This document shows positions 6,656 through 29,177 of a stretch of DNA of 29,177 nt, in pieces (within the stretch, counting starts at the first letter, position 1; every line of letters starts with the position of its first letter). The notes beneath the pieces were generated by a model. The model was not told the DNA's origin, did not search any database, and saw nothing but the letters and a program-made list of their open reading frames with translations. A program made the translations under genes and the position numbers. Origin of the DNA: a virus (Duplodnaviria > Caudoviricetes); the IMG/VR virus record IMGVR_UViG_3300030708_001743, positions 1-29,177 of that record. The stretch is one strand, 5' to 3'.

Positions 6656-7507
6656 TTAAAACCACCTATCTAATTTTAAGGTTCTATTTGGAGTTATAGG
6701 AGCGTTTCTAGGTCTTGCTCTATCTTTCATTCCTAATACTCTCGTTTCTTCACTTTTCAATCTCTTTTTTGCCCACTTAGCAAACTCTTCATCTTTTAAT
6801 AATTGAGGCAGTAAATAGCCCTGATTTGGTTTTATTCTTAATTTCCTAAGAATAGTAGGCACTTTAGAATAACTACCCCTTTTAGGATAATTAATCTTTG
6901 AATATATTCTTCCATCATGTGCATATGCTAATAACTCATAGAAGTAATCAGAAGACCATCTTCTCTTTACTCTACCATCTATAAATACTAACTTGTTCGG
7001 ATTAAGATTTAATCCCAACCAAGTCATAATTTGCACATCGGCGGGTTTATTGAATTTTAAATTCTTAAGCACTTCTTTACGATTAGTGTTTTTAAGATAA
7101 TCTCCTACCAACTCAAACACACTTAATTCTATTTTATGTGGTGGTTGACTTCTAGGCGCTATCCTTTTTATTTCTTCTAACGCATATGCTTTAGTCCCTG
7201 CCCTTCTAATCTTACAACAATTCTTAATATCTTTCGGAACATCTTTTTCATTATTAGAAGTTAATACAATTTGACTTTTACAATTTCGTATTACATCCAT
7301 TATAATATCCTTATTGGCCTTATAATGTACTTCTTCAATAATAATATCTTGTTCAACGGATTTCCAATCTTTGTTTTCTATCTCATTAGCATAGTAAATT
7401 AATACGTCTTCTGCTACTAAAGTTTTAGCAAGTGTAGATTTTCCTGTTCCGCTTTTTCCTGTTATTAATATTGGTCTTTTCTTTTCTCCCATATTTATTA
7501 AACTCAA
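6656..7507 (-). CDS. Divergent clamp-loader large subunit (RFC-L-like AAA+)
   Basis: Walker A GKSGTGKS, IIIEEV Walker B, adjacent to rfcS, PIP-like C-terminus LKLDRWF. Confidence 0.6.
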   Translation of the reverse strand: MSLINMGEKKRPILITGKSGTGKSTLAKTLVAEDVLIYYANEIENKDWKSVEQDIIIEEVHYKANKDIIMDVIRNCKSQIVLTSNNEKDVPKDIKNCCKIRRAGTKAYALEEIKRIAPRSQPPHKIELSVFELVGDYLKNTNRKEVLKNLKFNKPADVQIMTWLGLNLNPNKLVFIDGRVKRRWSSDYFYELLAYAHDGRIYSKINYPKRGSYSKVPTILRKLRIKPNQGYLLPQLLKDEEFAKWAKKRLKSEETRVLGMKDRARPRNAPITPNRTLKLDRWF

Positions 7508-7905
7508 GTTATTAACCCCTTTATCTCTAATATTTTATCAAAGCCTTTTTGCGTTAAATGATGTTTATTAGAAACAATAGTTAATACTTCTAAAAATGAT
7601 TCAAATTTATTGCAATGCTTTGGTATGTTTGGTATAAGTTTATAAAACTGTAATAGATTATTAATACTAGTAATCCTAAGTATAGGATATTTTCTATTAC
7701 AATGTTCTGTTTCCTTTAAGTAGGAATCTATACCATATTCCTCTAAAGTTTCTTGTAGTACAGATAAGAACTCTATATTCATCGCTCTTATTTTAACCAC
7801 TAATCTTATTCTATAACCGATAGACTGTTTGCTATCTTTTTCTATTGATACTTCTGGACTAGCCAGTGATACCAATATTCCTTCAAGTTGTTCTTTCGTA
7901 AACAT
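7504..7905 (-). CDS. Single-motif LAGLIDADG-fold protein, probably catalytically inactive
   Basis: Contains GYRIRL, and KHHLTQKGFDKILEIK as in LAGLIDADG_1 proteins. The motif helix reads LEGILVSLA, with no catalytic acidic residue. Confidence 0.7.
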   Translation of the reverse strand: MFTKEQLEGILVSLASPEVSIEKDSKQSIGYRIRLVVKIRAMNIEFLSVLQETLEEYGIDSYLKETEHCNRKYPILRITSINNLLQFYKLIPNIPKHCNKFESFLEVLTIVSNKHHLTQKGFDKILEIKGLIT

Positions 7906-14195: not shown

Positions 14196-14681
14196 TTATT
14201 CTTCCTCCTTTAATTCTTTAAATTCTATATACTCGGTTTTTTGATAACTATGATGTTCCATATAATCTACATTCTTAAACCAAGTTTGATGTTCATTATC
14301 TCCTAATACAATTGCACTAAGCATTCTAGTTTTCCATGTATTAATTGTTCTCATATCTGTTCCGCTAAAGTAAGCCTTACCAAATGGATGAGTATGAATC
14401 CAACATTTAACTGGTAACTTCATTCCCACTGGGTCTTCACTGAATTCCACAAAAGAAAACGTTCCAAAACTAATGAACAATCTATTATTGTTATCAATTA
14501 CAACTTGAATTTCTCTTGGAGAATCGAATGCTTCCATACTCATTTCCCATATTTTTTCAAGAAAAAAGTGTCTCTTGTAAACTTCTGTACCTTTTGGTTT
14601 TTGAAATATACCTCTTAAAGCCTCACCATCTTCAAACGCTTTAATAATTTCTTCTTTCCAATTTCCATTTAATATTATCAT
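14196..14681 (-). CDS. JAB/MPN+ metalloprotease
   Basis: REIQV glutamate, then WIHTHPFGKAYFSGTD (HxH-x7-S-x2-D). Confidence 0.88.
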   Translation of the reverse strand: MIILNGNWKEEIIKAFEDGEALRGIFQKPKGTEVYKRHFFLEKIWEMSMEAFDSPREIQVVIDNNNRLFISFGTFSFVEFSEDPVGMKLPVKCWIHTHPFGKAYFSGTDMRTINTWKTRMLSAIVLGDNEHQTWFKNVDYMEHHSYQKTEYIEFKELKEEE

Positions 14682-15241
14682 ATATTCACAACCTTATAAT
14701 CACAAACATCATCATTATCCACAAACCATCTTTGCATCCATTCTGCGGCCATACCTGCTATTGCTACATGAGTAAAATGTATCCCTTCTTTCTTACCTTC
14801 CCAACTATCTCCTTGACATGAAAAACTTCCATCTGGTCCTGTTAATACTGTATCAAACATATTCTTTGGAGTCTTATAACTAATTAAAGCACCATTCCTT
14901 GCTTGAGCCCTCAAGTCTAACCATTGCACTGATGACCTATAAAGTAACCTTCTTACATCTAAGTTATCTGCACAACAAATCACTAAATCGTATCCTTCGA
15001 TTTGTCTTTGTGTTAGTACTAAGTATGGTTCTGCTTTAACTATTGATTTGTAGCGAGTTTTCATAGCGTAAACTTTCTTGTCTTCCACTTCATCTTGTTC
15101 ATAGTTCTGATAAGTTAAGTTCTTAGTCTCGACAATATCGGGGTCGAAAGCCGTTATCTTATACAGTCCTGTTTTATCTAAAAGAGGGATTAGAAAACTA
15201 CCAATTCCTCCCGTTCCTATTATCATTATTTTTCTTTTCAT
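14678..15241 (-). CDS. ThiF/MoeB/E1-like Ubl-activating enzyme
   Basis: IIGTGGIGS, DPDIVETKNL, DLVICCADNLDVRR. Likely start is the ATG at 15241, behind GGTGA. Confidence 0.9.
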   Translation of the reverse strand: MKRKIMIIGTGGIGSFLIPLLDKTGLYKITAFDPDIVETKNLTYQNYEQDEVEDKKVYAMKTRYKSIVKAEPYLVLTQRQIEGYDLVICCADNLDVRRLLYRSSVQWLDLRAQARNGALISYKTPKNMFDTVLTGPDGSFSCQGDSWEGKKEGIHFTHVAIAGMAAEWMQRWFVDNDDVCDYKVVNI

Positions 15242-15242
15242 T

Positions 15243-15517
15243 TTATTCACCTATATCTTTATAATTTTCTATTCCATAATCTATATGTTCTTCTGTTAAA
15301 TATTTAATTCTACTATCAATCATATTACCTAAAACATTCTTTACTATTTATCTTTTACTTTATCATTCTCAGGTTTTAGTAGATGTCCTTTATCGTTACA
15401 GACACCTCCTAAACTTTTGAATAAATCTGTTAATCCTTGAAAGTTTCCGTATTCATTAAACATTATATATTTTAAAATCTCATATTCTACTTCTTTTATA
15501 CTTCGTGGTCTTGCCAT
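15243..15517 (-). pseudogene. Frameshifted ORF (about 91 aa if repaired)
   Basis: MARPRSIKEV... stops at TAG 15344-15346. The -1 frame continues IVKNVLGNMID... to a TAA overlapping the E1 RBS. Confidence 0.5.
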
Positions 15518-16350
15518 CTTATTCCCTCTATTATATCCCCTATTGTTAATCCAAACGTGCTTTTAATTCCTAGTTTGGATAATATATTTTTATAGTTATT
15601 TCTAACTGTTTTTGCTTCCTTAATATCGAAAGCAGTTGCCACTTCTTTTTGTGTTGTTGTTTTACTTGGTTGCGTTGTTTCTACACAATATACTATTCCC
15701 GCTAAATATGCAGAAGTAGGATAACGTGTTTCTATACCATCTAAATATGTGTAAAGACTAATACAATCATTAGTAAAGGAAAGGTCTTTGTCTAAATTTT
15801 GACAAAACTTTCTGAGTAAAGCATTTGCATTTCCCATTGAAAAAACATGGCTCTTACCCAGATGTCTAGCAAACAATCTTGAAAGTTTACTCACTCTCTT
15901 GGGTGTAACTTCTAAACGTTTAGCAACTTCTAATAAAGTATAACTGTAGTTATACTCTCTTAATACTAAATAAGTTATAGCCGCACTTCTTTCTTCTAAT
16001 TCCATTTTAGAAGTAAAAATACCTTTACTCTTTAACTTGTTATAATATTCCATAACAGTTAACTTAGACGCTTCACACATTGAAAATTCAGAGGCGGCTA
16101 CATTACAATAAAACTGGGCTTTTTTCATCGTCCTTTCTTCTGACGACATTCTACTAGTTACAGCAAGCCTTCGCAATTTGTATGACCCCTTCTCTTTTCC
16201 AATAACGCTTCCTAAATCGTTATTATCTTTATGTCTGTCTTTTAACAGCACTTCGTTCTCTAATATATCACTACAAACTAACCCACAATTAGGGCATTCA
16301 TAGTGAATATCGCTTCTAACAACATCTACATTACATTCATCGCATTTCAT
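15496..16350 (-). CDS. tfb: Transcription initiation factor B (TFB/TFIIB-like)
   Basis: N-terminal CDEC...ECPNCGLV Zn ribbon, then two cyclin-like repeats (TLLEVA, TQKEVA...TVRNNYK). Confidence 0.85.
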   Translation of the reverse strand: MKCDECNVDVVRSDIHYECPNCGLVCSDILENEVLLKDRHKDNNDLGSVIGKEKGSYKLRRLAVTSRMSSEERTMKKAQFYCNVAASEFSMCEASKLTVMEYYNKLKSKGIFTSKMELEERSAAITYLVLREYNYSYTLLEVAKRLEVTPKRVSKLSRLFARHLGKSHVFSMGNANALLRKFCQNLDKDLSFTNDCISLYTYLDGIETRYPTSAYLAGIVYCVETTQPSKTTTQKEVATAFDIKEAKTVRNNYKNILSKLGIKSTFGLTIGDIIEGIRWQDHEV

Positions 16351-16439
16351 TTTTGTCACCCGAAAGTGACCGTTTTATTTCTCTGAACCTTTTGGAACAG
16401 CGAATTGTTTGGTCTGACAATTCCTTATAGTGATGGTAC

Positions 16440-17687
16440 TTAAAGTTCTCTGACTCTAAAAGTTCGGTCAGGTATTCTACACTGTGTTTGGTCCAATGTG
16501 TGGACATCTCCTAAGTAGCCTTTGATTGTTGAAACTCTACTGACTAACATATTATCATTCAATAGGCCCATTGCTCTAGTTACGAATTGGTCGCCAGTAG
16601 GTGATTTATTATCCAAGTTATCTACACAAATTGGACCTGCCCACCTGCCTTTATCTTCACCTTCAACCCAAACATAAGTAGATACGTTCTGTTGTCCTTG
16701 AGATTTAAGCCCTCTATCAGTTAGTTTCCAATCTGCTAATTTACCTCTAATATACATTACAGTTGGATTCTCTGAAACATCTAATAGTTTATCGGGACTA
16801 CCCCAATTGATAGCAATTCTATCGGGGAATCTTCTACCAATATGAATCATTAAATCTCTTGCTCTTTCTTTAACAACTTTAGATGTTCTATTCTGATTTA
16901 AGAATGCTACCATTAATGCTTCTTCGGCAGGGGTAGGTTTTTCTCCACCCATAGTTTTAGCCCATAACTCTGACGGACTTAGATTAGACCAATTACCTTG
17001 TTTCTTTTTCTTGAGATAACTATTCATATAGACATTCATCTGTTTAATGGTTAGTTCTCCCCAAACACCGTCTGATATTTCTATGGCTACATTCTTTTCA
17101 CCAATCAAATTAACCTTTAATCTACATTCTATTCTCTTACCATAATTACCATATTCATCTTCTAAGTAGAAGTAATAAGGCGCTCTGTTTTCTAGTGCGT
17201 AAGAAACGTTCTCTGGAATATGAATATGTTTATACAAGAACTTCTCTAGTTCTACTGTATCATCAGTAAAACAAGATTTGAATATAGTTCTTGCTAATGC
17301 GGCAAGAAGAACGGATTTGTTGCCCATAATTCCATTAACATAATATCTAGTTTTTACTTTATTGAAGTGGACCATATATCCTTCTTCTCCAATGTAAATA
17401 TTATATGCGAATTGCTCTCCTTCTTTAATATCATCTTTCGGTTGTTCCCAAGATGGAGTATAGTATCCCCTACTTCTACGATATGTATTTCTATACATAT
17501 TTCTCCTAGATATTTTTAGTTTGCTACTAAGCCAACTTTTTACTGCTTCAATCATAGGATTGTTAGCATTTCTAAAACTTCTAGGGTTTATATTGGCAGT
17601 ATTGTATTCTTCATCTTCTGAAAATCTTACTATTGTTGAATCGTATTCTCTCGAATCATCGGGTCTTTGTATTAATAATTCTGTCAT
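16440..17687 (-). CDS. Hypothetical protein; C-terminal domain is a candidate E2/UBC-like domain
   Basis: C-terminal WAGPICVDNL resembles the G-x-I-C-[LV] E2 active-site motif. Sits between the Ubl and E1/JAB genes. The function is inference. Confidence 0.4.
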   Translation of the reverse strand: MTELLIQRPDDSREYDSTIVRFSEDEEYNTANINPRSFRNANNPMIEAVKSWLSSKLKISRRNMYRNTYRRSRGYYTPSWEQPKDDIKEGEQFAYNIYIGEEGYMVHFNKVKTRYYVNGIMGNKSVLLAALARTIFKSCFTDDTVELEKFLYKHIHIPENVSYALENRAPYYFYLEDEYGNYGKRIECRLKVNLIGEKNVAIEISDGVWGELTIKQMNVYMNSYLKKKKQGNWSNLSPSELWAKTMGGEKPTPAEEALMVAFLNQNRTSKVVKERARDLMIHIGRRFPDRIAINWGSPDKLLDVSENPTVMYIRGKLADWKLTDRGLKSQGQQNVSTYVWVEGEDKGRWAGPICVDNLDNKSPTGDQFVTRAMGLLNDNMLVSRVSTIKGYLGDVHTLDQTQCRIPDRTFRVREL

Positions 17688-17691
17688 TTTA

Positions 17692-17844
17692 TCACCTTAA
17701 TTTACTCTTATAATTTTGTACACATTTAGGGTGTACTTCCTCTTTAATGTCTTTCGGATGGGTTAGTTGACCACCACAAATTCGACAACTTGTTGCTATA
17801 TTATTGCCTTTTCTATCTTTTGTATATTTAGGATTCTTTGTCAT
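17692..17844 (-). CDS. 50-aa Zn-finger-like protein
   Basis: Hand-translated MTKNPKY...SCRICGGQL...VHPKCV. Confidence 0.6.
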   Translation of the reverse strand: MTKNPKYTKDRKGNNIATSCRICGGQLTHPKDIKEEVHPKCVQNYKSKLR

Positions 17845-17973
17845 CTTTAATCACTCTCTGTCGTGATACTAATAGATGTGGATGTTTAAGAAGTAACTCT
17901 TTTAGAGCATCTGAGACAGATTGAATATCTTCATATTCTTCCATCCAAACGCTACCGTTTTGTTTACATATGC

Positions 17974-18267
17974 TTATTCGGAATTTATCCAATTGGATTC
18001 CCTCTCAATATAAGCCATTAATTCCCTATAGTTATTCCTTTCGTCTATTAGCCAATCTTTGAATGTATAACTTTTAGTTATATTGTTTTTTAGTATAAAA
18101 TGCCTTATCCATTTTACACATAAATGTTGTTTATTTATATCATCTAAATCATAAGTCTTAGAATTATCTATTCTTTGTAATAACTCTATATAATCATCGT
18201 GAGATAATATTTCTCCCCATTCCATAACACAGTTTTTTAATTCATTTATATCTTTAAATATCGTCAT
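17974..18267 (-). CDS. Hypothetical protein
   Basis: 97-aa co-oriented ORF. Confidence 0.6.
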   Translation of the reverse strand: MTIFKDINELKNCVMEWGEILSHDDYIELLQRIDNSKTYDLDDINKQHLCVKWIRHFILKNNITKSYTFKDWLIDERNNYRELMAYIERESNWINSE

Positions 18268-18580
18268 TTAACTCAAACCTTACATAATTATCATTAACGG
18301 AATAGGTTGGTGCTTCATAGGAACCACCCATAACTGTAGATACTACAGTGCTACCGACTATTTTGAAAATCTTGTGACCATTTATTAGATTGCTTAACCT
18401 TTGATGAGTAGTAGAATATCTTCTATATTCTTCGTTTAACTTCTCAGCAATAGTTTGTATTGGTATGGGTTCTGATTCCCATAAAATTTTTAATAAGGCC
18501 ATTTTGGTATAAACGCCCTTTGGTTTAGATTCAAAAAATAATCTACCATTTTTTAATTTTACATTATATTCCTTCTTCAT
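18254..18580 (-). CDS. Winged-helix-like protein, apparent paralog of 10703-10948
   Basis: IPIQTIAEKLN...TTHQRLSNLI...F. Confidence 0.55.
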   Translation of the reverse strand: MKKEYNVKLKNGRLFFESKPKGVYTKMALLKILWESEPIPIQTIAEKLNEEYRRYSTTHQRLSNLINGHKIFKIVGSTVVSTVMGGSYEAPTYSVNDNYVRFELNDDI

Positions 18581-18643
18581 ATCTTCACTTCCTTCTCTAT
18601 TATAGAGAGGTAAAATTAATCTTTAATTTCGTCTATATTAATG

Positions 18644-18850
18644 TTAACCTAAATTTGGTTTAGGTTTATAACGCTTAAGTATTTTCTTACCTAGATAATA
18701 ACTTAATCCAGACCAAAATAATATTTCTACTGTTATTAGTATAACTCCAACGGTATTACCGAATTTCCAAATATCTCCATTTAGACATCCTTCAAACTCC
18801 ATACAGAAATCGGAGAATTTCATATCCATTTCATAATCTGGAATATCCAT
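18644..18850 (-). CDS. Small membrane protein
   Basis: One TM segment (VGVILITVEILFWSGLSYYL) followed by a basic tail. Confidence 0.65.
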   Translation of the reverse strand: MDIPDYEMDMKFSDFCMEFEGCLNGDIWKFGNTVGVILITVEILFWSGLSYYLGKKILKRYKPKPNLG

Positions 18851-18851
18851 A

Positions 18852-19022
18852 TTATCTCCACAGTTTTCTTAATCCGTTTTTAAAATCGTTGTTTATTTCT
18901 TCTTTTTCTGTTTCATTAAATGATATTTCCCCTACATCAAACGTTATTACGTTTAATAGAAAATACCAAGTTAATGATAGTAATAATATCGCTGTTGTTC
19001 CCGCTATAATTAATGTGGACAT
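18852..19022 (-). CDS. 56-aa membrane-anchored protein
   Basis: Hand-translated MSTLIIAGTTAILLLSLTWYFLLNVITF... Confidence 0.55.
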   Translation of the reverse strand: MSTLIIAGTTAILLLSLTWYFLLNVITFDVGEISFNETEKEEINNDFKNGLRKLWR

Positions 19023-19048
19023 AACTAGCCCATAACGGTTTAAAAAAT

Positions 19049-19152
19049 AAACTTAGTGGAAAAACTAAGGAGCGAAGACCCCTTTTCCTAGCCCGCAAGG
19101 GAATTGCTGAAATTAAGATTTAGTTTTATTACTTGGAAAAACCACTGAGTTT
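19049..19152 (-). ncRNA. Structured intergenic motif, copy C
   Basis: AAACTTAGTGG/CCACTGAGTTT, AAAACTAA/TTAGTTTT; bulge ATTACTTGGAAAAA at 19128-19141. Confidence 0.55.
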
Positions 19153-19187
19153 TGGTGAGACACGTAAAGTGCCGAGTTTTATTTTAT

Positions 19188-19388
19188 TTAATTCCCGCCA
19201 ACGATTGCGGGAACTAATTCTACATCTGAAACATCATCCCAGTTTACAGCATTGATGTCACTACGATTAATCATTTCTCCATCAACAAACACCCAATGTG
19301 TAGCATGTTCGTTTATATGGTCCATAATTTCAGTAGTGGCTACTGATATTTCTGTATGTCCTGTTTCATTTAATATTCTTAGTTTCAT
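19188..19388 (-). CDS. Ubiquitin-like beta-grasp protein (ThiS/MoaD/SAMP-like) with C-terminal GG-N
   Basis: VFVDGE...DVELVPAIVGGN; the diglycine is followed by one extra residue. Confidence 0.85.
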   Translation of the reverse strand: MKLRILNETGHTEISVATTEIMDHINEHATHWVFVDGEMINRSDINAVNWDDVSDVELVPAIVGGN

Positions 19389-19806: not shown

Positions 19807-21213
19807 TTATTCTTCTCCTCCCGCTTCAGTTTCACTTTTGGGAAGATTTTTCAATCTTTCAATCTCTCTACTTGCTTCTCTCTTAGACCAATCTTTATTT
19901 GGTTGGCCTCCTAAACTTCTTACATATGCAAGTTGTTTTTCTGTAGCAGGTTCGGAAACTCGATTAACTATTTTAATGACTCTTGATTTTTGTTTTGAAG
20001 ACATAACTCGTAAACTATTTATCTTACGAATCATATCTCTCAAGAACGTTTTCTCCCAATTATTTTCCCCATAATCGGAGTTAAATAACGGTAAATCGTT
20101 TTCATCACAGAATACCTCAAATGCTTCATCTAATTTCTTTTGATGTTCTATTTGTTCTAGTCTTCTTTTCTCTCTACGAATGGCCTCTCTAGCCTCGTAT
20201 TCCTCTTGTTCCTTACGTCTTCTCTCTGCTTGTTCTTCTCTCTCTTTAACAACAAAGGCAACTCTTTCTGCTCTTTCTTCATCTTTAGCCGCAAGTATTC
20301 CTTTTTGTCTTTCTAAATCAAAGAAGAAAATCTGTAAGTCATTCCATAATCTTTGATTAGGCCACCCTCTTGTATCTTTTTGTGCAACACTTTCTTGTTC
20401 ATCGCCTCTTGAATAATTCCACCTTTCGGAGTAACTTAATTCTTGATATTTAGATTTCTTAATTCTTTCTCCAGTTTCATCATGATAATAAAACCATTTT
20501 TTGTTATCGGGATGATTCCATCTCCAAACAATAGAGGCCATAGCATAATCAGGTTCACCCATTTGACTTACAGCCTTTTTACGAATTAACTGTTGATGCT
20601 CATATCTGTTAGTATCGCTATCCCAATAGGATTCGCCATTTCTAACATTAACTCGTAAATCTGTTTCCTTAACAGCATTGAACCATTCTTCGAATTGTTC
20701 TCCCCATTGATTCCACCACCATTCTGCCTTCATAGTTTTCACTGATTCCTTAATCCATTCTCCGATTCTTTCTTGAGTAATCATATCGGCAGGTACATTC
20801 AAATCGGCTAATAGATGTCTTGCGACCATCCAAAAACCGATATGCTCACTACCCACTATTTCTCTTGTGTTGTTTTCAGTGTTTACTATCTCAAAATGCC
20901 AAGCGATTTTATGTCCACAAACACATTCATGTGGGTGTTTCTCTTGGTGGATAGCGGGTAATATATCATCGGCTGATTCTCTCATTGGAACATACCAAAT
21001 ATTACCAGTTGCTTTCCATTCAAGTTTTGCTTCTGCCCAATCATCTGATACGGATAGATTAGTTAGTCTTTCCTTCAATGCGATGTTATATGCACCAGTA
21101 GGATTAACCCACTTCTCATCTACCACATCTCTAAGAATTTGACCTACATCTATGTGGTCATTCGCTCCAACTCTTTCTGCTATTCCTCTTAATTCATTTA
21201 TATCATCAACCAT
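19807..21213 (-). CDS. Hypothetical protein with CxCGH metal-binding motif and coiled coil
   Basis: HECVCGHKI...VGSEHI; charged helix; C-terminal PATEKQLAYV...SKREASREI module. Confidence 0.75.
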   Translation of the reverse strand: MVDDINELRGIAERVGANDHIDVGQILRDVVDEKWVNPTGAYNIALKERLTNLSVSDDWAEAKLEWKATGNIWYVPMRESADDILPAIHQEKHPHECVCGHKIAWHFEIVNTENNTREIVGSEHIGFWMVARHLLADLNVPADMITQERIGEWIKESVKTMKAEWWWNQWGEQFEEWFNAVKETDLRVNVRNGESYWDSDTNRYEHQQLIRKKAVSQMGEPDYAMASIVWRWNHPDNKKWFYYHDETGERIKKSKYQELSYSERWNYSRGDEQESVAQKDTRGWPNQRLWNDLQIFFFDLERQKGILAAKDEERAERVAFVVKEREEQAERRRKEQEEYEAREAIRREKRRLEQIEHQKKLDEAFEVFCDENDLPLFNSDYGENNWEKTFLRDMIRKINSLRVMSSKQKSRVIKIVNRVSEPATEKQLAYVRSLGGQPNKDWSKREASREIERLKNLPKSETEAGGEE

Positions 21214-24059: not shown

Positions 24060-24071
24060 ATTAATCACCTG

Positions 24072-24592
24072 TAGGTGGGAAGGTAGGGATGACGACCTAA
24101 CATCTCGTGGTGTTAGTCTAAACGGAGTTCCCTAATTTACTACCCTACCTCCCCTGTAAACTAAGGAATGTAAAGTGGAATGGGGGGAGTCATAAAAGGC
24201 TATAAACGGGCCTATCCACACTCTCCCCCCACCCCTTAAAGGATGTATAATAGTGTGGACTTTAATATCTTATGATTGATAGTTAATAAAGTTGGGGTGG
24301 TATCACAACATGAATTCTGTAATGCCTCAAACACATCATACCGCAAAAAAAATAGTCTTAAGGCATTTCTACGGATGATACCGAATTACCTAGAATTTCG
24401 GGCCATTTAACTCCCGATATACTAGAACCCTTGAATATAACCAATAAGGAAAAGGGAAAGAACCAATGACATGAATTCTGTAATGTCGCCAACTCATCAT
24501 ACCGCATTAATACAATCTTTACGACATTCCTACGGATTAGTTCTCTGCTTGAAAGGAGATGTTCTCCCTTTATTACTTTGCAAACCTTATTG
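24072..24592 (-). ncRNA. Long structured leader or ncRNA
   Basis: No ORF and successive stems: 24077-24153, 24181-24231, 24299-24382, 24442-24592. The last is copy D of the bulge motif, bulge ATTACTTTGCAAA at 24572-24584. Confidence 0.6.
24308..24537. repeat. Two 69-bp imperfect direct repeats with compensatory stem changes
   Basis: 24308-24376 and 24469-24537; AATGCCT/AGGCATT versus AATGTCG/CGACATT. Confidence 0.9.
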
Positions 24593-24607
24593 AAATATAA
24601 TTTATTA

Positions 24608-24873
24608 TTCTCAGACGTTTCTCACATCTTTCTCAAAACTTTTCACCGATTATGTTTGAAATTTCAACACAATCAAATGTTTCTCACTTATTCTCATTAT
24701 TATCATTATTCTCACTTCTCACTCTATATATACAGTGTAATAGAAGTATAGTATGTAATATAATAATAATAAATATATAATAATAATAATAATAATGATA
24801 ATAATAAAAAAATCATACTATATGACTCAGAATCGCAATGATAATTCTCAAACGCATTGAGAATAATTGAGAA
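24608..24873. other. Candidate replication origin (TTCTCA iterons flanking an AAT-repeat unwinding element)
   Basis: TTCTCA at 24608, 24619, 24630, 24681, 24691, 24709, 24716, 24845; TGAGAA at 24858, 24868; almost pure A/T tract about 24757-24813; lies at the coding-strand switch. Confidence 0.5.
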
Positions 24874-25237
24874 TAATACGAATCTTATGAATATTTTATA
24901 CTAGGTACTAATATCTATATTAATATAATATATTATATAATATATAACCAATTGAATTTGATATAGTAAAATGGCTAACTATTTAGGTAGGTATAACTAT
25001 TACCATTTTGGGTGGTAGTAATTATATTTGTGTTAGGTTTTACTTAGATAAAAGAGGTCACTCTCCATGTGAGATATACTGTAATGGATAATCATTTCTT
25101 TTGTCTACCTACGGGATGTTAAATTGCTTATAAAAAAGCCGCACGGTCGGATTTTGCAAATTTACAACTTTAATGAAAAATCCATTCAAGTTTAACTACG
25201 TAACAACCATATGGTACGAGTTACTTTGTTAAGGAGA

Positions 25238-25246
25238 ACCTTAACT
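25238..25246 (+). promoter_or_regulatory. TATA-like box ACCTTA, cassette 1
   Basis: TTA lies 25 nt before ATG 25266, and no RBS is present. Confidence 0.65.
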
Positions 25247-25265
25247 AATTACGCTTGGCATAGGT

Positions 25266-25472
25266 ATGGACAAACAATGGGAAAATTTTCACGTAGTGAA
25301 CACAAAAGACGTAACGAACTTTAAACTTGTAGGTTGGGAAGGACCAGAACCAACAATAAGAAAATTAATGAAAAGATTAAGAACACAATTTCCACATAAA
25401 GAATGGAGAGTTGAACCATATAGTGCATATGGCTCTATAAAATGGATTCAATACAGACGGAGGGATTACTAA
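25266..25472 (+). CDS. Hypothetical protein (cassette 1)
   Basis: 68 aa, leaderless spacing from the promoter. Confidence 0.7.
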   Translation: MDKQWENFHVVNTKDVTNFKLVGWEGPEPTIRKLMKRLRTQFPHKEWRVEPYSAYGSIKWIQYRRRDY

Positions 25473-25643
25473 ATGTTTCAAAGAAGACATTATACTAAAA
25501 TCGCTGAAGTTTTAGCAGAAACTAAACCTGATAGCACCACTTTAGAATATTTAATGCAAATGTTCGAAAAAGATAACCCTAATTTCAATAGGGGTCGTTT
25601 TCTGAAAGCCTGTAAGGTGGAAAATGACGAAGTTGCGGGGTAA
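25473..25643 (+). CDS. 56-aa viral protein with DNPxFxxxRF motif (cassette 1)
   Basis: Hand-translated MFQRRHYTKIAEVL...FEKDNPNFNRGRFLKAC...; GGAGG RBS. Confidence 0.7.
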   Translation: MFQRRHYTKIAEVLAETKPDSTTLEYLMQMFEKDNPNFNRGRFLKACKVENDEVAG

Positions 25644-25726
25644 TACTCGCTTCACTTCTTTCTTGCAAAGCCTTCATTTAGTGAAACGAAAATGTATTAC
25701 CATATGGTTTGGCACTTTGTCCGCAG

Positions 25727-25735
25727 ACCTTAATA
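25727..25735 (+). promoter_or_regulatory. TATA-like box ACCTTAATA, cassette 2
   Basis: Same motif and position relative to the junction as in other cassettes. Confidence 0.6.
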
Positions 25736-25754
25736 CTAATTTGAATTACAATAG

Positions 25755-25995
25755 ATAGTCAAGTGGTGATTGAACCTTCGGGGAATATCATCATGCGATT
25801 AGAGCAGGGTAAACGAAATTAACCAATGCGACACGATGTATCACAGGGTGAGCCGTAAGATTGCAATTATATTACTAGTGTGTAATTGATGCACTTTCGA
25901 GAAGGCAACAGACTTGTAGAGCCGTCCCTCCGATTGCGATTAAAAGTAAGTTACTAAGGATAGATGCGCATAAACCTAAACTGTTCGGCTTAAAT
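25755..25995 (+). ncRNA. Putative structured RNA at the head of cassette 2
   Basis: About 260 nt without a plus-strand ORF after the promoter. TGGTGAT/ATCATCA stem capped by CC-TTCG-GG; CAATTATAT/GTGTAATTG stem with G-U pairs; GAGCCG/CGGCTT. Confidence 0.5.
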
Positions 25996-26019
25996 TCAAA
26001 AAATGTTAAAGGTGATAAA

Positions 26020-26166
26020 ATGAAATACCCTGAAAAATTTATAATGAGTGAATTGATTAAAATGACAAGTGCTGAATTAAGTGAACTTGAGTCATCATTA
26101 TACGAGGACTGGAATAGAGTAAACAAAGCACATCAAGTAGTGTCAAAAATAGAGGAGGAAGAATAA
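26020..26166 (+). CDS. 48-aa hypothetical protein (cassette 2)
   Basis: MKYPEKFIMSEL...; AGGTGA RBS. Confidence 0.6.
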   Translation: MKYPEKFIMSELIKMTSAELSELESSLYEDWNRVNKAHQVVSKIEEEE

Positions 26167-26268
26167 ATGGATGAAATATTAAAAGGGTTGTTAGAAGAAG
26201 TGGTTGATTTACATGCGTCTTATGACCATTTGATTAAACAGATATTACAAGTATTAGAAGGTGAATAA
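26167..26268 (+). CDS. 33-aa hypothetical protein (cassette 2)
   Basis: MDEILKGLLEEV...; GAGGAGG RBS. Confidence 0.55.
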   Translation: MDEILKGLLEEVVDLHASYDHLIKQILQVLEGE

Positions 26269-26270
26269 TT

Positions 26271-26474
26271 ATGAAATGGTTTAACAGAAAAAATACAGTT
26301 GAAGAAGTAGTTGAAAATACAGAACAAAGATTTGTTATTGAGGTTGGTCATAACCGTAATAATGAATTAATCATCAAGAAGATGAGAGTAAGTGGTGATG
26401 ACTTAGAACAATGTATTACCGATTTACAGTTAGCCCTGCAAGATTTCAAAGTCTTAAGGGCAACAGAACAATGA
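26271..26474 (+). CDS. Hypothetical protein (cassette 2)
   Basis: 67 aa, AGGTGA RBS. Confidence 0.7.
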   Translation: MKWFNRKNTVEEVVENTEQRFVIEVGHNRNNELIIKKMRVSGDDLEQCITDLQLALQDFKVLRATEQ

Positions 26475-26498
26475 CCCCACCTTCGGGCGAGTTCTGTT
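26462..26498 (+). terminator. 3' hairpin of cassette 2
   Basis: AACAGAAC/GTTCTGTT stem with CC-TTCG-GG. Confidence 0.5.
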
Positions 26499-26550
26499 AT
26501 GTAAGGTTCGGGCAAAGCGCAACCATATGGTAAGGCACTTTGTCAGTCGC

Positions 26551-26559
26551 ACCTTATAA
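26551..26559 (+). promoter_or_regulatory. TATA-like box ACCTTATAA, cassette 3
   Basis: 8 nt after the ACTTTG arm. Confidence 0.65.
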
Positions 26560-26618
26560 CCAATTAGACTTACAATGAGTGGAGGTCAAACAAGTTGAAT
26601 TAACTTAATTGACAGGAG

Positions 26619-27152
26619 ATGAAAAATATGGCAGATTATACAATGGACGAAGAAAAATGGAATGCCCGAGTTGCCCTAATCGAGAATGATTTATCAATTA
26701 ACGATAGAGGTAGCATGGAAGCAGTTCTAAGATGGAATTTAGAAACAGGAACTACTGATGTAGAAAACCGTAAAAGATATTGGACTAACGTTTCCAATCT
26801 TTACGCTACTGTTGACAACTCACCAATTAAATTTGGTAAGCAATCAACACTCCCCCAAGTAGTTCAGGATTCACTTGCAACATTAAAGGCAATTTATGCC
26901 GAAGGTCACTCTGCGCTTTTTGCGACTCACCCGCTCTTTGGTGAAGTCGAATCAAAAAGAGGTGCTTACTCAACACCATACGGTGACAGTGAATCTTACG
27001 TGAGTGCAATGGTAAGTTTATTCGTTGATAGGATGACTGAATATTACAAAAACCACAGAGATAACGTTGCAGGTAAAAAGCAATGGGATGGAACTTTAAA
27101 TAAAAACGGATTACCGACAATCGTAATCCCAACTAAGGAGGTCGAAGGTTAA
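26619..27152 (+). CDS. Hypothetical protein (cassette 3)
   Basis: 177 aa (start may be 26628); AGGAG RBS; followed by a CCCC-TTATGT-GGGG hairpin. Confidence 0.8.
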   Translation: MKNMADYTMDEEKWNARVALIENDLSINDRGSMEAVLRWNLETGTTDVENRKRYWTNVSNLYATVDNSPIKFGKQSTLPQVVQDSLATLKAIYAEGHSALFATHPLFGEVESKRGAYSTPYGDSESYVSAMVSLFVDRMTEYYKNHRDNVAGKKQWDGTLNKNGLPTIVIPTKEVEG

Positions 27153-27257
27153 ACCTAACGGTTTGGCCTCCACCCCCTTATGTGGGGTTCTGACAAAGTG
27201 CAACCATATGGTAATGATACTTTGGAGTAATTACCCTATAAAATAATAGTAGAGAGA

Positions 27258-27277
27258 TATAGGGGCTCCCCCCTATA
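27258..27277 (-). terminator. 3' hairpin of cassette 4
   Basis: TATAGGGG-CTCC-CCCCTATA. Confidence 0.5.
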
Positions 27278-27293
27278 CCTCCCCACGTTTAAG

Positions 27294-27533
27294 TTATATC
27301 AACTCGAGTTCTTCACATGTTGTTCTCCAAGATTGCTCACTTATATTATGTGCATCTAAAAACCATGTTACCTCCATAGTTACTTCATTAATAGGCACAG
27401 TAAATTCAAACCAAGTTGTTCTATTTGTAAAATCTCCCGAAGCCATTTTATATTCACCCATAGGATATAATTTCTTTAGGCCAATGAATTCTTCTACAGT
27501 TGTGTTATATTGTGACATTTCAAATTTCCCCAT
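27294..27533 (-). CDS. Hypothetical protein (cassette 4)
   Basis: Likely start at 27533 (MGKFEM), TAATG overlap with the upstream ORF. Confidence 0.7.
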   Translation of the reverse strand: MGKFEMSQYNTTVEEFIGLKKLYPMGEYKMASGDFTNRTTWFEFTVPINEVTMEVTWFLDAHNISEQSWRTTCEELELI

Positions 27534-27637
27534 TATAACCACCCCCACCAAAAGTCAATCCAATTTGTATTTTTGGCTTCTCTTATTTCTCTTAATAGTT
27601 CTTCGTCTTCTCTTTCTTGTCTTTCTTCTTTATTCAT
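27533..27637 (-). CDS. 34-aa microprotein with Trp-rich tail (cassette 4)
   Basis: MNKEERQEREDEELLREIREAKNTNWIDFWWGWL; GGAGG RBS. Confidence 0.55.
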   Translation of the reverse strand: MNKEERQEREDEELLREIREAKNTNWIDFWWGWL

Positions 27638-27841
27638 TTATTCCAACCTCCTTACGATATCACTCACATATACTGAGCCCATTTCATCATAAAAGCCAAT
27701 GTCAGAACCGAAGACATGCATTAAAACTACACGTTTAAATCCTCGTCCTTGTTTTGGACTTTCTAATAGTTGCGCTCTTAAGTCATAACCAAAGTTATTG
27801 ATTATATACCATTCTCCCTTTACTAAATCACTTGCGTTCAT
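27638..27841 (-). CDS. Hypothetical protein (cassette 4)
   Basis: 67 aa; ATG 27 nt from the TTA of the ACCTTA box at 27866-27871. Confidence 0.75.
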   Translation of the reverse strand: MNASDLVKGEWYIINNFGYDLRAQLLESPKQGRGFKRVVLMHVFGSDIGFYDEMGSVYVSDIVRRLE

Positions 27842-27936
27842 ACCATTTGTAAACTAAGTTATACATAAGGTAGTTCACAAAGTTACCTACCATATGGTCT
27901 TAACTTTGTAAAAATGGCCCCGAAGGGCGCTAACGA

Positions 27937-28419
27937 TTAGGAATAATCGTATTTTGCCTCTTGTCTGCAAAATATCATCCATCCCGAATCCATCTTTTTA
28001 ACCCAAAACCCTGCATCTTTGATGGTTTGTTTTTCTGCCTTCCAAAAATCCCAAAAAGCAGAAGTAGCATGAGCCCACATAACTTTACCAGATTTAGCAG
28101 TTTTGAATTCTGCCCCAAATGCATTCCATTTGTTATATTTCATTCTAGGAGTTTCATGATATTGAATTGAAACCGCATCCCAAAAGTTACTTTCAACTAA
28201 CTGGTTAAATGTATCTGTAGCCTTTTCAAGAGCATCAGTTAAGGAATGTGCTAAGTTCTGTCGGAAGTCGCAGAAACCATTAGTGCCAAATTCTTTTTTA
28301 ATTACCCCTTCATGATACAATGTATAAAACTGCTCCTTTTTACCAGTTCTACAAACATGTAAAACACTAATATTGTTTATTTGTTCTTTATCTCTAATAT
28401 AACTAGGTAGGTCGTCCAT
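27937..28419 (-). CDS. Hypothetical protein (cassette 5)
   Basis: Start re-assigned to 28419 (MDDLPSY), 27 nt from the ACCTTA box at 28444-28449. Followed by a CCC-TTCG-GGG hairpin near 27916-27930. Confidence 0.8.
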   Translation of the reverse strand: MDDLPSYIRDKEQINNISVLHVCRTGKKEQFYTLYHEGVIKKEFGTNGFCDFRQNLAHSLTDALEKATDTFNQLVESNFWDAVSIQYHETPRMKYNKWNAFGAEFKTAKSGKVMWAHATSAFWDFWKAEKQTIKDAGFWVKKMDSGWMIFCRQEAKYDYS

Positions 28420-28511
28420 GCTAATATTAGTAACTAGTGCATATAAGGTATATAAGTTACAAAGTATCATACCATATGGTCATAACTTTGAGATTATTGA
28501 CCCGAAGGCCG

Positions 28512-28742
28512 TTAATTTAATTGGTCAAAATACCACCTTCCATTAACCATTAATTCATGTAATGGTATTCCTGTAACGATTGATAATTGGCAACAAGGGG
28601 TGCAGTATTTTGGTCCGTAAAAACCTTCAGGGTGTCTACTATCCATCGTAAGGTTATTACATACATCACATACTGTAAATTCATCTAATGCGTCTTCTTT
28701 TCCTCTTTTATATCCATTCCAAAACATCTTTGCTTCTGTCAT
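28512..28742 (-). CDS. Zn-finger-like protein (cassette 6)
   Basis: Start re-assigned to 28742 (MTEAKM), 27 nt from the ACCTTA box at 28767-28772; CDVC...CTPC. Confidence 0.75.
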   Translation of the reverse strand: MTEAKMFWNGYKRGKEDALDEFTVCDVCNNLTMDSRHPEGFYGPKYCTPCCQLSIVTGIPLHELMVNGRWYFDQLN

Positions 28743-28832
28743 GATTATAGTAATTATGAGTAAGTATAAGGTGTAGCATCCAAAGTTACACACCATATGG
28801 TCATAACTTTGTTGTTAGTGACCCGAAGGCCT

Positions 28833-28961
28833 TTATTCTTCTTTCTCTTTTTCTTTTTCTGCATCTATTCTTGCCCAATATGCTTTCCACAAGGGACTTT
28901 CAAACCCATTATTATCAAACCTTCTGCGTCCTTTCTTAGCCATATATTGTTTCTTCTTCAT
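28833..28961 (-). CDS. 42-aa basic microprotein (cassette 7)
   Basis: MKKKQYMAKKGRRRFDNNGFESPLWKAYWARID...; GAGGTG RBS, ATGA overlap. Confidence 0.6.
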   Translation of the reverse strand: MKKKQYMAKKGRRRFDNNGFESPLWKAYWARIDAEKEKEKEE

Positions 28962-29083
28962 TCTACCACCTCACATCGAGGACATCTGCATCCGTTTCTC
29001 ATTCCCATTAATTCAAACATTCTTCTTTCACATCCATCAAATTCATCCAATGCTATCTCTGCTAATACTACTCCTACGTGCAT
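28958..29083 (-). CDS. 41-aa Cys-containing microprotein (cassette 7)
   Basis: MHVGVVLAEIALDEFDGC...GCRCPRCEVVE; ATG 27 nt from the ACCTTA box at 29108-29113. Confidence 0.6.
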   Translation of the reverse strand: MHVGVVLAEIALDEFDGCERRMFELMGMRNGCRCPRCEVVE

Positions 29084-29177
29084 ATTAGTATAATTAGTCA
29101 ATTGCTATAAGGTGTTTCATACAAAGTATAACACCATATGGTATGATACTTTGTGGAATACCTCATAGAGAACTAAT

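Follow-up and report, generated by a model that had tools for sequence, protein, structure and literature searches.

A Cassette Array Beside the Replication Genes

We analyzed a window of 29,177 nt, meaning the whole stretch of viral DNA studied here (positions 1 to 29,177 of IMG/VR record IMGVR_UViG_3300030708_001743; Duplodnaviria, Caudoviricetes), which ends in an array of small gene cassettes joined by short palindromic sites. This is an ocean virus whose hosts are likely marine archaea, and outside the array the window encodes a replication module in which PolB, clamp loader, ligase, GroEL/GroES-like and ThiF/JAB genes were recognized (Pfam, PHROGs). Exact copies of the palindrome ACCATATGGT begin at 25206, 25699, 26522, 27203, 27889, 28471, 28792, and 29133 and nowhere else in the window; at no more than one mismatch, 13 matches were found vs. 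0.89 expected (100 shuffles). All eight sites fall within 25206–29142 at spacings of 321–823 bp and split 25206–29177 into seven units of 311–813 bp, in agreement with an earlier note on this DNA. The same note described the units as self-contained and as split in orientation, and both descriptions held: an ACCTTA box follows the 5′ end in 7/7 units, cUUCGg-type hairpins lie at 26480, 27919, 28501, and 28822, and the open reading frames (ORFs) read on the plus strand in units 1–3 and on the minus strand in units 4–7. As it also supposed, the array runs past the window edge; in the near-identical relative G001, two further units follow site 8 and then a distinct anchor site.

For comparison, 287 units were cut from 53 loci; because arrays were located through exact cores, lineages with other cores are under-sampled in this set. 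Cassette gene content across the 53 arrays is highly variable. Core site 1 (25206..25215), the outermost on the replication-gene side, has in its right half a CTTTG hairpin and an ACCTTA box (25238), and lacks a left CAAAG arm; at core site 2 (25699..25708) the left hairpin is a long stem, so that arms of one kind do not flank every site as had been claimed. Between them, unit 1 (25216..25698, plus strand) encodes a 68-aa ORF (25266–25472) that is replaced in G001 and a 56-aa ORF (25473–25643) whose family occurs in 15/53 arrays, and its long 3′ hairpin runs into site 2. Unit 2 (25709..26521, plus strand; box at 25727, cUUCGg hairpin at 26480) carries ORFs 26020–26166 and 26271–26474, the latter from a family in 14/53 arrays. 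Upstream of these, the plus strand at approximately 25750–26000 likely specifies a structured non-coding RNA, judging from four homologues in which 7/53 predicted pairs changed on both sides; it had no Rfam match at threshold. ORF-less units of 460–560 bp are also present in other arrays.

After core site 3 (26522..26531), unit 3 (26532..27202, plus strand) holds a 177-aa ORF (26619–27152) of family F0 (158–210 aa), a near-universal cassette gene found in 46/53 arrays, often as two paralogues. Core site 4 (27203..27212) is a tail-to-tail junction with both hairpins kept, the right one formed by GGT at 27210, CTTTG at 27220–27224, and ACC at 27233. Unit 4 (27213..27888; ORFs 27638–27841 and 27294–27551, box at 27871) opens the minus-strand series. 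Core site 5 (27889..27898) is empty in the window; in relative G001/L152 it holds a fold-back unit of 85 bp along with a further core. Unit 5 (27899..28470) has one ORF (27937 to approximately 28419), a box at 28449 and its 3′ hairpin at 27919; unit 6 (28481..28791), between core sites 6 (28471..28480) and 7 (28792..28801), has a 76-aa ORF from 28512, a box at 28772 and a 3′ hairpin at 28501; and unit 7 (28802..29132) has two ORFs of approximately 42 aa each (28833–28961, 28958–29101), a box at 29113 and a 3′ hairpin at 28822. Core site 8 (29133..29177, with its flank to the window edge) is head-to-head, and ACCTCA at 29160 opens a plus-strand unit 8.

Predicted Twin Hairpins Around an Invariant Core

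Each unit end, promoter and terminator ends alike, is predicted to fold on itself as GGT-stem-CTTTG-stem-ACC. The pattern GGT-n-C(TTT)G-n′-ACC fitted 394 of 518 dereplicated ends, and many of the remaining 124 have longer stems, other loops or GGT/GCC closures. The arms covary: the first stem pair was Watson-Crick in 311/394 ends vs. 152 expected, the lengths of the two arms are correlated (rho 0.64), and the folding energy was −2.58 kcal/mol with an end's own arms vs. −1.19 ± 0.06 kcal/mol with permuted arms. The hairpin pattern is found at 155/167 5′ (promoter) ends and 146/167 3′ (terminator) ends, and both hairpins are kept at 12/15 tail-to-tail junctions. The motif is thus retained where no promoter is needed, which, together with the rearrangements at the core described below, refutes a role as a promoter-side operator alone as well as a fixed gene order.

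The two ends that meet at a core resemble each other less than other pairs do (similarity score 0.06, vs. 0.97 for other pairs and 1.88 for pairs within a cassette), from which it follows that a site consists of two hairpins rather than one cruciform. A single long cruciform over the junction was rejected on these scores, and the CAAAG/CTTTG arms, previously taken for the arms of one long palindrome, make better sense as loops of separate hairpins, one per neighboring unit. True terminal inverted repeats were likewise rejected, the within-cassette excess being real yet small. A search for one-strand enrichment of GC-GNA-GC mini-hairpins gave an unconvincing 13 vs. 7 among 516 ends. What the sites share across relatives is the core CCATATGG, exact in 367 of 368 core-like 8-mers (377 twin-hairpin contexts examined); the 10-bp core of the earlier note is exact in the eight sites of the window, and among relatives only these eight bases are invariant. 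Where the base after CCATATGG changes from T to A, its hairpin partner turns to T in 6/9 cases and its palindrome partner in 0/9.

The stems also differ by strand. On the strand carrying the TTT loop, G·T exceeds A·C by 33 vs. 16 at 5′ ends and by 38 vs. 7 at 3′ ends. Since the TTT strand at terminator ends is the non-coding strand and not mRNA, this asymmetry favors selection on a DNA fold rather than an mRNA fold. It bears directly on the explanation that read-through transcripts are cut at AUAU between the hairpins, with DNA rearrangement incidental. G·U-compatible wobble pairs are indeed tolerated in the stems, and a two-fold helix with a looped-out 3′ element on each strand would by analogy resemble archaeal bulge-helix-bulge sites; the 3′-end asymmetry, however, lies on the antisense strand, the 5′-end hairpin lies upstream of the TATA-like box, and DNA breakpoints are exact at the core, so that we regard RNA processing as very improbable.

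The TATA-like box itself is set in the foot of the 5′ hairpin, where ACC is followed by T/C, T, and A at 85, 79, and 86% of ends, and the resulting ACC-YT-A may be read from its letters as a decayed half-core. Given this placement, the joint probably serves as a promoter scaffold as well.

Rearrangements at the Core

Gene content, order and orientation vary among relatives with breakpoints at the core, as the earlier note had anticipated: units are gained, lost, reordered and flipped. The best-resolved gain or loss is at site 5 (27889), where G001 has the extra 85-bp unit and second core. Assembly graphs of three sequencing runs (X1, X2, and X4) contain a bubble exactly at this site, with a 49-nt empty path and a 144-nt path whose insert has the same length as the G001 unit. 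Path depths were 11.2/5.05 (X1), 18.5/16.3 (X2), and 16.7/16.7 (X4), and run X5 has the empty form only, so that presence and absence coexist in three of four runs; two studies supplied these runs, and the window itself may derive from X1.

Reordering was found in 8/43 anchor-oriented pairs. Between loci L154 and L158, two cassettes exchange places with hairpins intact up to the core. More generally, where orthologous cassettes have different neighbors (46 ends), identity is 0.78 on the cassette side of the core and 0.51 beyond it, vs. 0.91/0.91 where the neighbor is the same (30 ends), and moved cassettes carry their own hairpins along. Polymerase stalling at template hairpins was therefore rejected, as it predicts breaks at the inner ACC and the hairpins instead stay with the cassette. 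Of the reordered pairs, the two closest have their greatest divergence in the moved unit (83–84% vs. 85–99%), which suggests import from a relative; in the other six, divergence does not discriminate import.

One clean inversion was recovered. In locus L589, a 606-bp cassette, 98% identical to its counterparts, is flipped between two cores relative to L549, L507, and L608, with flanks unmoved. A second inversion separates G010 and G025, at 86% cassette identity, and orientation is mixed in 20/32 arrays. The 606-bp inversion and the site-5 insertion are exact to the core although the sites share only 8–10 bp. Apparent joints at 27217>28470, 27217>28792, and 28497>27194 were discarded as matches from other viruses (sides of 21–31 letters with diverging loose ends). 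Short units (<165 bp) as captured spacers found no match outside arrays among the loci examined, host genomes not being part of this search.

We therefore consider it somewhat probable (approximately 0.55) that the sites are exchange joints, at which DNA is cut and joined within CC-ATAT-GG under the guidance of structure. This reading is preferred for its account of the eight invariant bases, the covarying stems, the retention of the motif without transcriptional use, and the exact inversion and insertion. On this reading, the predicted DNA hairpins that close neighboring units stand back to back across CC-ATAT-GG, and an enzyme guided by structure would likely cut inside the palindrome and rejoin any two ends. 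The strand with the TTT loop 3′ of ATAT would be the folded, recognized form; the cut would be staggered across ATAT, leaving self-complementary ends that allow both orientations; and most moves would be imports from co-infecting relatives.

Breaks Away From the Core and a Possible Regulatory Explanation

Several observations weigh against core-specific exchange. Only 15 of 69 alignment ends lay within 12 bp of a core, and 54 lay elsewhere (14 close pairs); the former is about twice chance (at most 9.8%), the pairs are not independent, and alignment ends are fuzzy. A single event at a core and three changes within cassettes separate the window from G001. Positions 25999–26270 are missing from G001 and from run X7; this deletion lies between a pair of similar ribosome-binding/start sequences and is a microhomology event within a unit. 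Changes inside units and breaks off the core indicate that other routes also contribute to the plasticity of the region. In 415 comparisons of cassettes with at least 93% identity, the neighbors were unchanged in 393 and changed in 19, and the remaining three represented a single inversion event. Inversions are rare by every count (0/46 pairs, 3/194 orthologue matches, and these 3/415 comparisons, all one event), and random re-ligation of palindromic ends would yield more; 12/32 arrays with symmetric or mixed ends have a single orientation among their classifiable units. The hairpins are weak in isolation, and for several ends in the window the minimum-energy fold does not contain them. Replication slippage can remove a fold-back unit flanked by 10-bp direct repeats without any recombinase. 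Finally, terminal repeats indicative of circles were found in 0/200 metagenome loci, these being partly incomplete contigs and contigs dropping rare forms.

The rarity of inversions and the number of breaks off the cores would fit a regulatory scaffold resembling the promoter-stem-loop (PeSL) cassettes of T4-type phages, in which core and hairpins would form a symmetric binding or insulating element of transcription. General viral repair enzymes would then cause the rearrangements incidentally, through microhomology recombination stimulated by the hairpins, and these changes would be tolerated since units stay intact. The box built into the 5′ hairpin, the fixed promoter-side repeat of one relative (G040, below) and the lack of a recombinase in the virus records searched would suit it as well, and both PeSLs and the intergenic repeats of halovirus HF2 are experimentally supported promoters according to the available parts of their descriptions (PMC2839356; PMC8707807). 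Such a scaffold does not readily account for CTTTG hairpins that persist at terminator ends and tail-to-tail junctions in the numbers given above, for the gene-less units of 19–40 bp and fold-backs of 72–158 bp that occur between full cores, or for events exact to a core of which only 8–10 bp are common to the sites. We rate it as somewhat unlikely.

Search for an Enzyme

As previously noted, no recombinase is visible in the window: Pfam and PHROGs returned none among its 47 ORFs. A recombinase co-occurring with the array was also not found in the virus records searched, which counts further against dedicated exchange. Tyrosine recombinases (PF00589) were detected in 0/24 virus records (18 at least 90% complete), and serine recombinases (PF00239), telomere resolvases (PF16684), and IS110 enzymes (PF01548) each in 0/20; the HUH Y1 family (PF01797) gave one match in 20 records, at 15 bits and below the cut-off of 23. 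None of these families occurs among 81 shared proteins; present there are two nucleases (ERCC4-HhH and Cas4-like), two ATP-dependent ligases and a single-domain LAGLIDADG protein. The shuffling system proposed in the earlier note is thus shown as to gain and loss, reordering and in-place inversion at the core (8/43 pairs, the 606-bp inversion and the 85-bp insert) and not shown as to a dedicated enzyme; circles were also not seen in the metagenome loci, and most alignment breaks between close relatives fall inside cassettes.

The LAGLIDADG protein (window 7504–7905, minus strand) is a stand-alone single domain with a degenerate first helix, present in 7/9 compared sequences. The second ATP-dependent ligase, of 827 aa with intact motifs (L216:2005-4488, minus strand), lies among head genes in 8/8 records read; a structural-module ligase had already been noted in the available part of PMC5434244. 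The predicted model of F0 is helical (pLDDT 93); its best fold match (Z 7.1, rmsd 1.7, 57 aligned) is a generic helical bundle, the atlas search was blank, and a viral structure library returned only its own homologue. A conserved 468-aa ORF at 19807–21213, absent from G040, had no match at E < 0.001 and none at Z ≥ 5, and a conserved 430-aa protein beside the anchor had no PDB match, with all atlas leads below 0.9. These structure and atlas searches of F0 and two core proteins were uninformative and leave an enzyme possible. Candidates are the conserved ERCC4/XPF-like nuclease with either viral ATP-dependent ligase, the LAGLIDADG protein, F0, or a host recombinase.

Anchor Site and Array Variants

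The outermost site on the structural side has a stem-less outer half, core-CTTTG-few bases-AATTTTTTATTT. This anchor pattern was found at 86 IMG/VR loci, once per locus; two or more further cores occur in 69/71 loci with at least 2.5 kb of inner sequence, and a core lies outside the anchor in 6/86. In most loci the anchor-adjacent unit starts with TTGT and ends with ACAA; in some it is nothing more than a hairpin of 24–35 bp. A polarity with the newest unit at the anchor was not seen: orthologues were found for 24/26 first units, 100/144 inner units and 18/26 last units.

The array lies between the replication genes and the terminase/portal arm, which, with the single conserved anchor on the structural side, raises the possibility that the cores are genome-end, packaging or ejection signals, i.e., programmed nick or processing sites near probable termini at a divergent early/late switch. 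Shuffling would then be mis-joining on resealing, a step that the ligase of the head-gene region might carry out; its gene adjoins that of the prohead protease and its KxDG motif is intact. Pile-ups of molecule starts or ends are not reported, though contigs cannot reveal them; depth steps over the array are not a clean doubling; and the number of sites varies (approximately 4–13) with free gain and loss, a poor fit for an essential packaging signal. We consider this explanation quite improbable.

Arrays of the window's lineage hold gene-less fold-backs of 72–158 bp with their own terminal motif. The complete relative G040 has no twin sites and instead a one-sided form, a long hairpin followed by ATATG-CTTTG-GCAA, with TATATA at a fixed distance; the promoter-side half is a fixed 20-bp repeat, constant in its spacing to TATATA, and all array genes are co-oriented. 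The motif there may act as a promoter repeat. L153 has a similar array, and among the 80 loci covered (of 83), only a single IMG/VR contig had the G040-type motif in an array. One-sided sites with co-oriented genes, a link seen in G040 and L153, would fit a need for symmetric ends in orientation freedom. The G040 array includes two paralogous cassette genes of 181–193 aa (L377:6363-8431, minus strand) without a tblastn match to F0, and an F0 gene of G040 lies outside its array.

Virus Group, Distribution, and Neighboring Genes

Relatives of the window are tailed viruses of 90–97 kb whose capsid protein is nearest to those of haloviruses HCTV/HVTV in a phage collection. From gene content we infer that they belong to magrovirus group B (Aoguangviridae), on comparison with traits given in PMC10768690 and the available part of PMC5434244: genomes of 90–100 kb, split PolB, GroEL plus GroES, the structural-module ligase and an HCTV/HVTV-related major capsid protein. 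The array is common in magrovirus-like contigs of 60–100 kb. The core-plus-arm pattern matched 153 stretches in the scanned part of IMG/VR (approximately 670 estimated), and approximately 1700 are estimated in metagenome contigs; exact cores are confined to a single cluster in 8/8 records read nearly whole. The twin motif occurs in 45 stretches of GTDB genomes; no title among them names Poseidoniales, and apart from one array every hit is single. That array (L283:2127-4176) has twin hairpins on a contig binned in a bacterial (Altibacter) metagenome-assembled genome and is probably a mis-binned magrovirus fragment. Record L187 (G039; 184,733 bp), with two separate arrays, is probably two virus genomes joined in one contig.

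No tRNA genes were found in the window. The stretch adjoining the array (24070–25205) is non-coding and AT-rich with a sign change in GC skew and a 69-nt direct repeat at 24308/24469, and is origin-like in these features; a similar stretch adjoins the array of G040. Further into the replication module, the minus strand at 14196–19388 encodes ThiF (E1-like) and JAB proteins, a conserved 415-aa ORF (16440–17687) and a conserved 66-aa ORF ending in GG (19188–19388), which may together be a ubiquitin-like system of the virus; the labels E2 and ubiquitin come from motifs and not from database matches.

Discussion

Among known systems, PeSL cassettes of the T4-type phages RB49/phi1 are similar: each is a small ORFan unit equipped with a promoter and a terminator, the units lie in a hyperplastic region and have indels at their boundaries, and no dedicated recombinase is identified in the available part of their description (PMC2839356). 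A predicted promoter and stem-loop upstream of ORFans in a hyperplastic region are found here as well. In PeSLs, the promoter-plus-terminator repeats are Sigma70-like and long enough for homologous exchange, and recombination by homology was proposed (PMC2839356, available part); the magrovirus-like sites have a TATA-like box and share 8–10 bp, an 8-bp palindrome plus the CTTTG loop, and differ further in their two-fold symmetry, exact inversion, unique anchor and persistence where no promoter is needed. Encapsidated mini-circles have been shown for PeSLs (same source), and the array described here is known from assembled contigs only. The nearest archaeal-virus analogue is the set of intergenic repeats in HF2, promoter elements of a tailed virus with early and late arms; these are 29–58 bp long and conserved in position, and no palindromic core, twin hairpin or shuffling is described for them in the available text (PMC8707807).

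The comparison with integrons drawn in the earlier note holds as an analogy only. As in attC arrays (PMC5027507, available part), a short conserved crossover stands at the foot of a variable, strand-selected hairpin, and one distinct end site loosely recalls attI; covariation and the excess of G·T over A·C point to a strand-selected folded site with little sequence conservation, the folding being predicted. Three integron features fail. An IntI tyrosine recombinase linked to the array was not found in the 24 virus records; in place of one attC per cassette with RYYYAAC/GTTRRRY there are two GGT/ACC hairpins around CCATATGG, and both hairpins of a unit travel intact; and in place of promoterless, co-oriented cassettes there are units with a TATA-like box in both orientations. 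The anchor-adjacent unit, moreover, is the most conserved and not the newest.

Cutting near a hairpin foot by HUH enzymes (IS200/IS605, REP/RAYT), inversion at short sites in shufflons, and palindromic junctions of telomere resolvases offer partial parallels. The HUH, shufflon/serine invertase, telomere-resolvase, and IS110 systems differ in that their enzyme families were not found in the 20–24 virus records, and the variable stems rule out a fixed duplex binding geometry. Magroviruses have been described as lacking integrases and transposases (PMC10768690). The motif was not described in the literature searched, subscription papers and supplements lying outside its scope, and term look-ups in the available parts of PMC11706807, PMC5434244, PMC10160649, and PMC5332604 returned no passage on it.

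The more far-reaching form of the exchange-joint reading is a dedicated, two-fold symmetric, hairpin-guided system with an anchor, self-promoted cassettes and gene-less mini-elements, which would be an independently arisen archaeal-virus counterpart of the integron and would rely on an enzyme that belongs to none of the known groups searched for (tyrosine, serine, HUH-Y1, IS110, and telomere resolvase). We hold this form only tentatively, at slightly less than even odds.

Under the regulatory explanation, the sites would define magrovirus promoter architecture and provide a case of modular shuffling in archaeal viruses, of the PeSL kind rather than a new category. As an exchange joint, the site would be a synthesizable substrate for finding new recombination or end-joining chemistry, with eight invariant bases, tolerant stems and both orientations, and DNA assembly might benefit from it. 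Magroviruses abound in the ocean and have uncultured hosts, and a conserved exchange joint, if true, would explain the evolution of their most variable region.

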